Position numbers and translations under genes: made by a program | From: Eledone cirrhosa | Taxonomy: Eukaryota | NCBI GenBank assembly: GCA_964016885.1 | Contig: OZ024766.1 | Location: 3,596,001-3,660,000 of the forward strand | Reading direction: 5' to 3' | Length of the DNA stretch: 64,000 bases | Shown here: positions 8,301 through 47,300 of the stretch, in pieces | Layout of the letters: each line of letters begins with the position of its first letter | How positions within the stretch are numbered: the stretch's first letter is position 1 | Notes under the pieces: generated by a model | What the model was told of the DNA's origin: nothing | Seen by the model: only the letters and a program-made list of their open reading frames with translations | The model's database searches: none

Positions 8301-11300
8301 ATATATATATATATATATATATATATATATGTATATATGTGTATATATATATATATATATATATACATACATAGATATATATGTATGTGTATATATATAT
8401 ATATATATACATACATACGTATGTATGTATGTATATATATATATATATACACACACATACATACATGTGTATATATATATATATATATATATACACATGT
8501 ATGTATATATGTGTATATATATATATATATACATACATAGATATATATGTATGTGTATATATATATATATATATACACACACACATACATACATGTGTAT
8601 ATATATATATATATATATACACACACACACACGCACACATACGCATATATATATATCTACATATAATAAACATATGATAGTGTTGCTCTAAATGTCTACA
8701 AATTGTTGTTGTTGTTATTAGGTAGTACAGGAAGTACAGGGAGCGAGAGTGAGGGCCAAACCCTTCATGCTGGGGTGTGTGCCCAACAGGCTAACATGAG
8801 CTCCAAGGACTGTAACATTGCTTGTGAGTCTCTTGAGATTCTCGTCACCTGCTTGAAACTGCGCAGTCACCTACTATGTGAGTATATTACTACCTTCTTT
8901 CTCTCTCTTTATATATATCATCATCATCTTCATCATCATCATCACCATTTTACGCCCGTTCTTCCACGCTAGCATGGGTTAGACGGGTTGTCCTGTTGTG
9001 GGCAGTGTCCGGTCGGCTGACCATGCCTTGCTCATACAGGAACTGATTCTGGCTTGATTTCTACAGCTGGATGCCCTTCCTAACACCAACCTCATTTACA
9101 GTGAGTGCTGGGTGCTTTTTTGCCGTGGCACCTCCACGACCACTTTACAGTGAGTGCTGGGTGCTTTTTTTTGCCGTGGCACCTCCACGACCACTTTACA
9201 GTGAGTGCTGGGTGCTTTTATTTGCTGTGGCACCTCCACGACCACTTTACAGTGAGTGCTGGGTGCTTTTTTGCCGTGGCACCTCCACGACCACTTTGTA
9301 GTGGAATGATAGGGACCCCAGTCCCTATCATCTCATTTCTACAGCTGAGTAAACTGGACCAATGTGAAATAAAGTGTCTTGCTCAAGGAAACAACACATC
9401 ACCCGGTCTGAGAATTGAACTCACAACCTTTCAATTGCAAGGCCATGTGCCTCCATGTATATATATATATATATATATATACATGGAGGCACATTTATTG
9501 GCAACATAACCTCCCAAAGTGTGTGTGTGTGTGTGTATATATATATATATATATACACACACACACACTTTGGGAGGGTCATGTTGCCAATAAAAACACA
9601 CGCACCTGTTGGTTTGCACATCAATGTATTAAAAATTTCCGGTGGGTTTCGTTCGGTAACCAGAAGGTTCTTTATATATTGTCAAAGCTCTTTTGTCACA
9701 CATTCTGTGATCTCTTCAGTGACTAGATTTTTATTTTCTGTCTCTCCTTTGTTCTGTTCGACACCATATATGTTTGTCTGTGTATGTATGTATATATATG
9801 TATATATATATATATATACACATATATATATATATACACATATATACACACACACATTGTCCAAATGTGTCCTTGTCTCTCCCTCTGCAGCGGTCTTCTA
9901 CAGCCTTCCATGCATCATGTGCCAAAAGTAGAAACAATTATATTACACACACACACACACACACACAGACACAGACACAGACACAGACACACACACACAC
10001 ACACACACAGAATATATTAACAAATGGAAACTATATTTATAAAACCATATTTATTTTATTATACATATTTCAAGGGCCACCAAGGTAGATTATGGTGCAC
10101 TTTCATCAGATAAAATACACTACAGATTTGTTTTATAAATAAATATTGACATTATCTGATGAAAGATCAGATAATGTCAATATATATATATATACACATA
10201 CACACACACATTGTCTAAATGTGTCCTTGTCTCTCCCTCTGCAGCGGTCTTCTACAGCCTTCCATGCATCACTGATTTCATCACGGACATCTTGGTTGGC
10301 TCCCCACAGCTCGATATCCGGAACGCCGCTCTAGAACAGTTCTACCAACTCAGTCAGACAGAACTCCTGCACTCCGAGGTAGACGCCTCCAGCGTCACGC
10401 CTCACCATTTCATGTTGAAAGTCTTGCTTAAGAGCCGCCTGCCCTTCTGGGTTTCCTCGACTACGATCCGCGGCAGCAATCAAAGGTCAGTACACTCCCC
10501 CGACCCTTGCACCTTCTTGCCCCACGCCCCCCAGGGTTTTAAATGTTTCCCTCACCCTCCCATGCCACCATATTTTCTGTCTATCTCTGTGTGTGTGTGT
10601 GTGTGTGTATCTGTGTGTGTGTATGTGTGTATATCTATGTATCTGTGTGTGTGTATATCTGTGTATGTCTGTGTGTGTGTGTATCTCTATGTATCTGTGT
10701 GTGTGTATGTATGTGTGTATCTCTATGTATGTGTGTATGTTTGTGTGTGTGTATCTCTATGTATGTGTGTATGTTTGTGTGTGTGTGTATCTGTATGTAT
10801 GTGTGTATATCTGTGTATGTGTGTATCTCTATGTATCTGTGTGTGTATGTATGTATCTGTGTATGTGTGTATGTATGTGTGTATCTCTATGTATGTGTGT
10901 ATGTTTGTGTGTGTGTGTATCTCTATGTATCTGTGTATGTATGTATGTGTGTATATCTGTGTATGTCTGTGTGTGTGTGTATCTCTATGTATCTGTGTGT
11001 GTATGTATGTATGTGTGTATATCTATGTATCTGTGTGCGTGTGTGTATGTGTGTGTATCTCTGTGTGTGTGTGTATCTCTATGTATCTGTGTATGTATGT
11101 ATGTGTGTATATCTATGTATCTGTGTGTATGTATGTGTGTATATCTATGTATCTGTGTGTATGTATGTGTGTATATCTATGTATCTGTGTATGTATGTAT
11201 GTGTGTATATCTATGTATCTGTGTATGTATGTATGTGTGTATATCTATGTATCTGTATGTATGTATGTGTGTATATCTATGTATCTGTGTGTATGTGTGT

Positions 11301-44300: not shown

Positions 44301-47300
44301 GATCTTCCAGATAACATCAAAAACTCCACCCAGTATTTTCTGGTTTTGAAAAGTTATGTCCAGATGGTAAGAATTATTGAACTTTTTCATATCAACCTAA
44401 AACCACCAATTTAAAGGGTCTTTATTTAATCCTTTTTATATTGAGCCAGCCCTTAAAACCAGCTCTGGTTCTGTGAAATAAAACCACCAATTTTAAAGCT
44501 CTCTCCCTCCCTCCCTCCCTCTCTCTCTCTGCATATATTTCTCCCTCTCAGTATATATATATATATATGTGTGTGTGTGTAGGAAAATTAACAAAGGGAA
44601 GACAAGACAATGAACGAAAACAAAGCATTTGCTACTGTCTCGAGTACACTGGAGCTATTGGTATTGACCATAAAGCACTGAAACCATCATAAACTCCAGC
44701 TGTTGACTGATGAGAAGTAACTGTGCTGTGATTCGTCCTTTTTTCTGTTATCTTCACCCACCATCTTTGGTTTATTATATACATGTGTGTGTATATATAT
44801 ATATATATATATATCAGTAATTCTCTCTCTCTCTCTCCTCTAGGGTACCAAAGCCTGCAGTCACATGTTCCATCGCCGTGGTTTCAACCAATTGATTAAT
44901 TTCCTGCTGGGGACAGTTGATAAGGAAGAGGTAGATACTACACACCACATCACATCACTCCATACTATACTACAATACACTACACCCCAGCCACACCCTA
45001 CACTGTAGGCTGTATTTTATCATGACACCAACACTACCACTTTACAGAGTGTACTGGGTGTATTATATCATGACACCAACACTGCCACATTACAGAGTGT
45101 ACTGGGTGTATTTTACCATGACACCAACACTACCACTTTACAGAGTGTACTGGGTGTATTATACCATGACACCAGCACTACCACTTTACAGAGTGTACTG
45201 GGTGTATTATACCATGACACCAACACTGTCACATTACAGAGTGTACTGGGTGTATTATACCATGACACCAACACTGTCACATTACAGAGTGTACTGGGTG
45301 TATTATACCATGACACCAACACTACCACTTTACAGAGTGTACTGGGTGTATTATACCATGACACCAACACTACCACCTTACAGAGTGTACTGGGTGTATT
45401 ATACCATGACACCAACACTACCACTTTATAGTGTACTGGGTGTATTATACCATGACACCAACACTGCCACATTACAGAGTGTACTAGGTGTATTATACCA
45501 TGACACCAACACTACCACATTACAGAGTGTACTGGGTGTATTATACCATGACATCAACACTACCACTTTACAGAGTGTACTGGGTGTATTATACCATGAC
45601 ACCAACACTGCCACATTACAGAGTGTACTGGGTGTATTATACCATGACACCAACACTACCACTTTACAGAGTGTACTGAGTGTATTATACCATGACACCA
45701 ACACTACCACTTTACAGAGTGTACTAGGTGTATTATACCATGACATCAACACTACCACTTTACAGAGTGTACTGGGTGTATTATACCATGACACCAACAC
45801 TGCCACATTACAGAGTGTACTGGGTGTATTATACCATGACACCAACACTACCACTTTACAGAGTGTACTGGGTGTATTATACCATGACACCAACACTACC
45901 ACTTTACAGAGTGTACTGGGTGTATTATACCATGGCACCAACACTGCCACTTTACAGAGTGTACTGGGTGTGTCTTGGTTTCAATGGCAGGGGAAGTAAT
46001 CATGTAGCTAATCTGTTTCCATGTTTTCTGTTTTGCAGGAGTTATCCTCCCGTCGATGGATACCAATCCAAGCCCGTGACTTTGGTCACCTACAGATGAC
46101 GTTGGCAACTTTAATATTAAACTGTGATGTCAGCAACTACAGAACAGATGGTCTCTCTCTCTATCTCTCTCTATCTCTCTCTTTCTCTCTCTATATATCT
46201 CTTTCTCTCTCTATATATCTCTTTCTCTCTCTCTCTCTCTCTCTCTTTCTCTCTCTCTCTCTCTCTCTCTCTTTCTCTCTATATATATCTCTTTCTCTTT
46301 CTATCTCTCTCTTTCTCTTTCTCTCTCTATCTCTCTCTCTTTCTCTTTCTCTCTCTCTCTCTCTTTCTCTCTCTCTCTCTAATGTGACCCCTACTCTCTC
46401 TCTCTCTAATGTGACCCCTATTCTCTCTCTCTCTCTCTCTCTCTCTAATGTGACCCCTATTCTCTCTCTCTCTCTCTCTCTCTCTCTCTCTAATGTGACC
46501 CCTATTCTCTCTCTCTCTCTCTCTCTAATGTGACCCCTATTCTCTTTCTCTCTCTCTAATATGACCCCTATTCTCTCTCTAATGTGACCCCTATTCTCTC
46601 TCTCTCTAATGTGACCCCTATTCTCTCTCTCTAATGTGATCCCTATTCTCTCTCTCTCTAATATGACCCCTATTCTCTCTCTCTCTCAGTGACCCCTATT
46701 CTGTCTATCTCTCTAATATGACCCCTATCCTGTCTCTATCTCTCTAATATGACCCCTATTCTCTCTCCCTCTAATGTGATCCCTATTCTCTCTCCCTCTA
46801 ATGTGATCCCTATTCTCTCTCTCTCTCTCTAATGTGACCCTATTCTCTCTCCCTCTAATGTGACCCCTATTCTCTCTCTCTCTAATGTGACCCCTATTCT
46901 CTCTCTCTCTAATGTGACCCCTATTCTCTCTCTCTCTCTACAGAACCTGACCCCTATCAACCCTACACACCACAGACTGTCTCGCCACAACTTTACCTCA
47001 AGATGTCGGAGGATATGCTTTATTTTGTGTTTGGTGCTGGCTCCTACCGCTACATCAACGAGGTAACACCACTTCTACTACCACCACTACCACTGCACTG
47101 CACTACCACCACCACTACCACCGTGCCACCACTATTACTACACCACTACACTACCACCACCACTACACTACTATCACCACCACTACACCACCACCACAAC
47201 ACTACTACCACCACTACCACTATTACTACACCACCATCACCATCATACTACCACCACCACTATTACTACACCACTACACTACCAACACCACTACACTACT

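Follow-up and report, generated by a model that had tools for sequence, protein, structure and literature searches.

The intronic arrays of exon-boundary copies in the USP24 gene of Eledone cirrhosa belong to a known kind of repeat, the mirages, of which they form an unusually dense new example. Copies of their own junction were displayed by 12 of the 116 splice sites of the gene (eight acceptors and four donors), and splice sites were copied at about half the rate of intronic positions, with no enrichment at the boundary. Very probably, these mirages are rarer than ordinary intron copies and represent an untargeted by-product of frequent local tandem duplication on a small, repeat-saturated chromosome. 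In the same reading the true site is likely kept by exon definition, NMD is not the main filter, and the deficit at boundaries likely stems from geometry and mild purifying selection.

Gene model

The window is a stretch of 64,000 nucleotides (C27:3596001-3660000) on a contig of 22.4 Mb, in an assembly of 3.0 Gb. It contained the 3' half of USP24 (Table 1). From exon A (start 5213) to exon AD (start 56064), all 29 introns displayed GT-AG borders and a single open frame was maintained; homologue-guided junction calling recovered 29 of these 29 introns, and the top named homologues were molluscan USP24. The 5' half was found outside the window, up to ~63 kb upstream on the same contig. It yielded 33 junction calls, of which four conflicting ones were removed by hand before counting, leaving 29 introns. 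The 57 internal exons of the gene, once joined, formed 7554 nt without any stop.

An additional exon proposed at 781-831 was rejected, as homologues splice the upstream exon straight to exon A, and the GT-rich arrays at 831-5171 are consequently not donor copies. These arrays, with units of 32, 42 and 10 bp, displayed 135 CAGGTAG and 81 AAGTAAG donor-like motifs, none emanating from any supported junction, so that decoy-like arrays also form without boundary duplication. None of the 120 listed homologues was a named cephalopod USP24, the closest (P0001) being an unnamed partial protein; perhaps this repeat-rich locus is badly annotated.

Table 1. Location of USP24, of its junction copies and of associated arrays in the window
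Feature	Position	Strand	Details
USP24 3' half, exons A-AD	5213..56618	+	30 exons, 29 introns; open spliced frame, homologues, junction calls
Exon D acceptor, one copy	9826..9917	+	decoy exon start 9891; true start 10245, 354 nt downstream
Exon G donor-derived array	16400..19540	+	degenerate copies at the 5' end, followed by a core of 51 bp x 51.9; true donor after 16341
GTG-rich array, intron N-O	32129..34205	+	predicted fold-back onto CAC blocks flanking the O decoys
Exon O acceptor, two copies	34340..34681	+	copies at 34385 and 34524; true acceptor 34682
Exon R acceptor, 79-bp duplication	37903..38067	+	decoy 37951, true acceptor 38030; intron of 226 nt
Exon T acceptor arrays	40064..42449	+	64-bp x 18.6 (40083-41280), 68-bp x 15.4 (41364-42410); true acceptor 42450
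27-bp array, exon X acceptor-like without AG	46368..46937	+	not a decoy array

Junction copies in the window and in the 5' half

A sequence-only reading of the window had announced copies of the acceptors of exons D (one), O (two), R (one) and T (about 34), and of the donor of exon G (about 50 or more). All were borne out, with 34 copies at T and 54 at G. The D copy comprised 65 nt on the intron side and 27 nt on the exon side, the exon side of the O copies extended over 41 nt, and the R copy was identical over 48 nt on the intron side. The T copies of AAG/GTCCTA fell into two subfamilies with homogeneities of 96% and 99%, 15 copies being of the 68-bp type and 18 of the 64-bp type, and one was diverged. 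At G, the 54 copies of CAAGTAAG lay within 16342-19603, and the array was degenerate from 16436 to 16753 before reaching a core of 97% homogeneity; 53 of the 54 scored equal to the true donor. These copies had only three to five exonic nt in common with the exon, and G consequently failed the junction-centred 16-mer test applied below.

Exon X, previously listed as a partial sixth case, was retained only for its acceptor-like array: the 19 copies of its exon-like TGACCC motif lacked AG, and the W-X intron, which displayed a single AG besides the true one, is too poor in this dinucleotide for the copies to be decoy acceptors. AG or GT was retained in copies at D, G, O, R and T, and was absent at X and in the outer copies of the case at -38415. 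A weak match to the O donor at 35972 was not counted. The exon W donor (46150/46151, ATG/GTCTCT) was itself weak, with 2.3 bits, and directly abutted a (TC)n tract.

In the acceptor cases the intact exon was indeed the most distal copy, as had been pointed out, and this geometry has no evidential weight since any tandem boundary copy leaves the whole exon last (acceptors) or first (donors). A duplication unit straddling the boundary by chance would suffice for this arrangement, and the boundary copies may then have expanded by slippage or unequal exchange.

Among the 58 splice sites of the 5' half, which the earlier reading had not seen, seven further cases were encountered. Four were acceptors, with 28, 2, 1 and 4 copies, and the other three were donors, with 4, 14 and 8. 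They strengthened the claim of recurrence within the gene; the proposed origin, tandem duplication of segments that straddle a boundary, was likewise supported. Junction arrays occupied 12177 of the 111391 intron bases of USP24 (11%); a weak acceptor match at -22135 lies inside this array span and was not counted as a case.

The copies were confirmed as real at the R and L010 joints. Short-read-type DNA contigs (X22, X23) ran from one R copy into the next with no difference at the joint, and DNA-run contigs also crossed duplication joints at L010, in the 5' half; the runs behind the contigs at both places may come from the assembled individual. Array cores were 96-99% homogeneous and the long copy numbers at G and T came from the assembly alone, features that could be expected of assembly artefacts; this explanation is nevertheless extremely unlikely, as copies carried private substitutions and diverged flanks and as DNA contigs ran through both joints.

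Frequency of junction copies relative to the intronic background

Of the complex intronic 16-mers in USP24, 70% were copied in the same intron. This naive per-base background was discarded because its value is inflated by array expansion. A collapsed background was used instead, in which only first occurrences (donor-like) or last occurrences (acceptor-like) were counted, so as to strip the weight of long arrays; by this measure, 17-18.5% of USP24 positions displayed a copy. Junction 16-mers with an intronic copy numbered 11 of 116, against ~21 expected from the collapsed background. This background is home-made; since diverged array units inflate it and neighbouring counts are not statistically independent, the true deficit may be smaller. 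Taken alone, the USP24 acceptors (8 of 58 against 10.7 expected) were indistinguishable from background (P=0.5).

The deficit persisted when word length, allowed mismatch and distance were varied in six settings, observed-to-expected ratios being 0.50-0.54 in USP24 and 0.52-0.87 in a sample of dynein genes (see below), that is, below one in all 12 combinations of gene set and setting (0.50-0.87). Boundary duplication had been supposed to exceed the local background; the comparison of boundaries with introns gave 0.5-0.6 times the collapsed rate in USP24 and the 16 dynein genes, and the supposition was abandoned.

Exon edges might nonetheless be duplication hot spots, linked to splicing or transcription and acting as a specific mechanism of intron growth. 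The accumulation of twelve cases in one gene would fit, as would the collapsed copy rate, which in USP24 reached its maximum between 60 and 200 nt away from the splice sites (0.24-0.34, against 0.19-0.27 deeper in introns). The junction itself, however, displayed no peak: on the acceptor side, 36-42 of 51-55 positions were copied at 200-400 nt, and this number dropped steadily toward the exon, down to 8 of 57 acceptors and 3 of 57 donors at the junction and, 40-50 nt into the exons, to 0-1 of 57. Together with ratios below one in all settings and the minute share of dynein introns made of junction arrays (3300 of 523038 bases, or 0.6%, in the first set), this renders hot spots very unlikely. 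The same share contradicts the view of boundary duplication as a frequent intron-growth mechanism in this genome. Under the preferred reading of untargeted tandem duplication, geometry plus mild purifying selection would produce the boundary deficit.

Comparison with dynein genes and local tandem load

The outside sample, with homologue-called junctions, was drawn from nine other contigs and comprised 1.0 Mb of sequence surrounding 16 dynein heavy-chain genes. It covers the C-terminal parts of one gene family, and an open frame was lacking in eight of 252 short internal exons. Copies were found at 11 of 546 junctions in the first set (19.7 expected), at 15 of 662 in the larger strict set (24.1 expected, P=0.03) and at 15 of 680 in the relaxed set (24.7 expected). 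The dynein copies concerned six acceptors and nine donors; over USP24 and the dyneins together, acceptor and donor copies were nearly equal in number (14 and 12). Two near-identical dynein domain matches were noted on C19, at 6747135 (+) and 6766382 (-), inverted and 19 kb apart.

The odds of a junction copy were 4.5-fold higher in USP24 than in the dyneins (P=5.5e-4), which is consistent with its higher collapsed background (18.5% against 3.5%). Tandem repeats covered 70% of intron positions in USP24 and 1-37% in the dyneins. The local-copy fraction was 0.01-0.09 in the dynein regions of C1-C9, 0.10-0.29 in C17-C22 and 0-0.75 on C27, where 12 tiles had a median of 0.33. The correlation between background and junction rate per gene was weak and only suggestive (Spearman 0.45, P=0.07, 17 genes). 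These figures suggest that mirages occur at ~2% of sites genome-wide and ~10% in USP24, tracking the local tandem load.

Choice of the true splice site

Decoys had been described as reaching a stop codon, which held for D (codon 13), R (codon 14), T (codons 22-29) and the O decoy at 34385 (codon 92), and not for three arrays of the 5' half, whose decoys were in frame and stop-free. The O decoy at 34524 entailed a frameshift (158 nt) and remained stop-free up to 60 nt into the true exon. The nearest decoy was in frame in four of the 12 cases, as expected by chance; three of these four were stop-free, all of them in the 5' half. At L010:4873, three upstream decoys displayed the score of the true site, kept the frame and contained no stop. 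In-frame decoy donors were located at -38238 to -38094.

Splicing was assessed from contigs. Of 24 runs screened, 20 contained 0.05-0.07 of the words and were left out; run X24 yielded no contig at R. Run X21, whose library type is unrecorded, was taken as RNA because its contigs were spliced. In one of its contigs exon Q was spliced to 38030, the true acceptor of exon R; at L010:4873 another covered the true exon alone, the neighbouring exons being loose ends. The distal true acceptor was thus the spliced one, as anticipated, at both junctions (2 of 2, one run, contig level). No decoy-joined contig was found at R or L010:4873, a weak result since contigs lose rare isoforms.

Decoys may be appreciably used, their products being cleared by NMD or tuning USP24 in the form of regulated isoforms (poison or insertion). 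The nearest decoy scored within one bit of the true site in eight of the 12 cases, early stops followed most window decoys, and splicing at the two pseudo-donors closest to the true site is reported for human IFI6 and CBS (PMC1557585). Against such use, the frame displayed no bias, and the in-frame, stop-free decoys at L010:4873 would escape NMD, yet the sole spliced contig there took the distal AG. Appreciable use is therefore rather unlikely. As NMD does not explain the main product at L010:4873, NMD alone is an unlikely filter.

RNA structure could also hide decoys. The 2-kb GTG array of intron N-O was predicted to pair with the complementary CAC blocks that come after it around both O decoys (array and blocks, 32129-34656), and the predicted fold of 33751-34720 (MFE -558 kcal/mol, a value without shuffle control) enclosed them. 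This was the only large fold-back, and predicted accessibility failed to separate decoys from true sites: in most of the eight acceptor cases decoys were at least as accessible as the true site (O 0.73 and 0.74 against 0.68; T 0.69 against 0.54). Complementary intron ends were found in three of 49 introns, against 2.8% of cross pairs. Structure was accordingly rejected as a general explanation and is quite unlikely as the principal one, being plausible for O only.

It had been proposed that correct splicing rests on exon definition, RNA structure, re-splicing or NMD rather than on scanning; within that list, NMD alone is unlikely and RNA structure is not general. Scanning is a process running from the branch point to the AG. 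Every decoy possesses its own pyrimidine tract, which implies a choice among competing acceptors rather than a scan along the intron. By analogy with human data, the spliceosome would keep the true site because it alone belongs to a full exon with enhancers and has the nearest partner across the exon, while NMD would clear rare out-of-frame errors. In human long introns, PMC9225289 reports such cross-exon proximity, the acceptor nearest the downstream donor being favoured; for 3' sites the effect is weak, amounting to a reduced upstream preference, and exons with a short upstream intron act as in intron definition. The R intron is short, and an intron-definition-like rule would favour its decoy, so that R is not predicted and proximity alone cannot explain it; we infer that R may need NMD or enhancers for the choice of its true site.

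Relation to known repeats

Mirage repeats were reportedly first described by Canestro in 2002. Amphioxus 'mirage' minisatellites are known from Adh3, globins BflGb6 and BflGb9, troponin C and PGBD5 (PMC3087553, PMC3902484). Boundary arrays, thought undescribed as a systematic feature, had thus already been named, and the sections of PMC3087553 seen call them possibly general in that lineage, with splicing reportedly intact. As here, amphioxus tandem units (tens to ~160 bp) lie over acceptor or donor boundaries, many of them with AG or GT, and clusters display a homogeneous core with diverged boundary units, as in the G and T arrays. Unstable length, in somatic tissue or from one haplotype to another, is a further trait given for mirages in PMC3087553. 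Unlike what those sections of PMC3087553 describe, the present host is a mollusc, a single gene contains 12 cases, copy number reaches 54 and the rate was measured against background.

Human VNTRs spanning donors include the 37-bp repeat of F7 IVS7, IFI6 (6-16), CBS IVS13, LMNB2 and PDGF (PMC1557585). The G array resembles F7, where the upstream donor wins: its first unit consists of the last few exon bases plus the donor, followed by pseudo-donors. The VNTRs listed in that source are all donors, whereas acceptors were equally common here. In the intron-gain model of Rogers and the internal gene duplication of Gao and Lynch 2009, as cited in the parts of PMC3087553 seen, segments with splice signals are duplicated and the redundant copy is spliced out, as here; unlike in those schemes, no intron or exon was gained and an existing intron was lengthened. 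The literature searched, outside which lay most subscription papers and supplements, contained no cephalopod report and no genome-wide rate of boundary-spanning repeats.

A mollusc and a measured rate are thus added to the record of mirages, whose frequency apparently depends on how much tandem duplication takes place locally and amounts to roughly half that of intronic copies. The identical in-frame acceptors at L010:4620-4873 offer a clean, NMD-free natural test of branch-point and acceptor choice. Boundary copies can also misguide gene annotation where repeats abound. More tentatively, and with less than even confidence, small tandem-saturated chromosomes may hold thousands of natural splice-site competitions (~10% of sites), ignored upstream acceptors that are identical, in frame and free of stops included; cephalopod acceptor choice may then be unusually strict and exon-side, and selection against mirages might be gauged for the first time by the twofold deficit.

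Other repeats in the window

Exons N (31517-32076) and AD (56064-56618) displayed long runs of Ser/Gly/Asn/Gln/Thr that homologue P0001 lacks or has in shorter form; coding sequence is thus also reached by repeat expansion. Arrays with 72-bp units were located at 12296-13716, 36479-37507 and 50060-50951, and those with 48-bp units at 14408-15126, 26685-27316 and 34893-35836. Both units were separately expanded in several introns, on either strand, apparently from dispersed elements. In intron M-N, the arms of a long inverted repeat (28470-28980 and 30740-31270) flanked an interior that looked ORF-like by eye, possibly the remnant of a mobile element.
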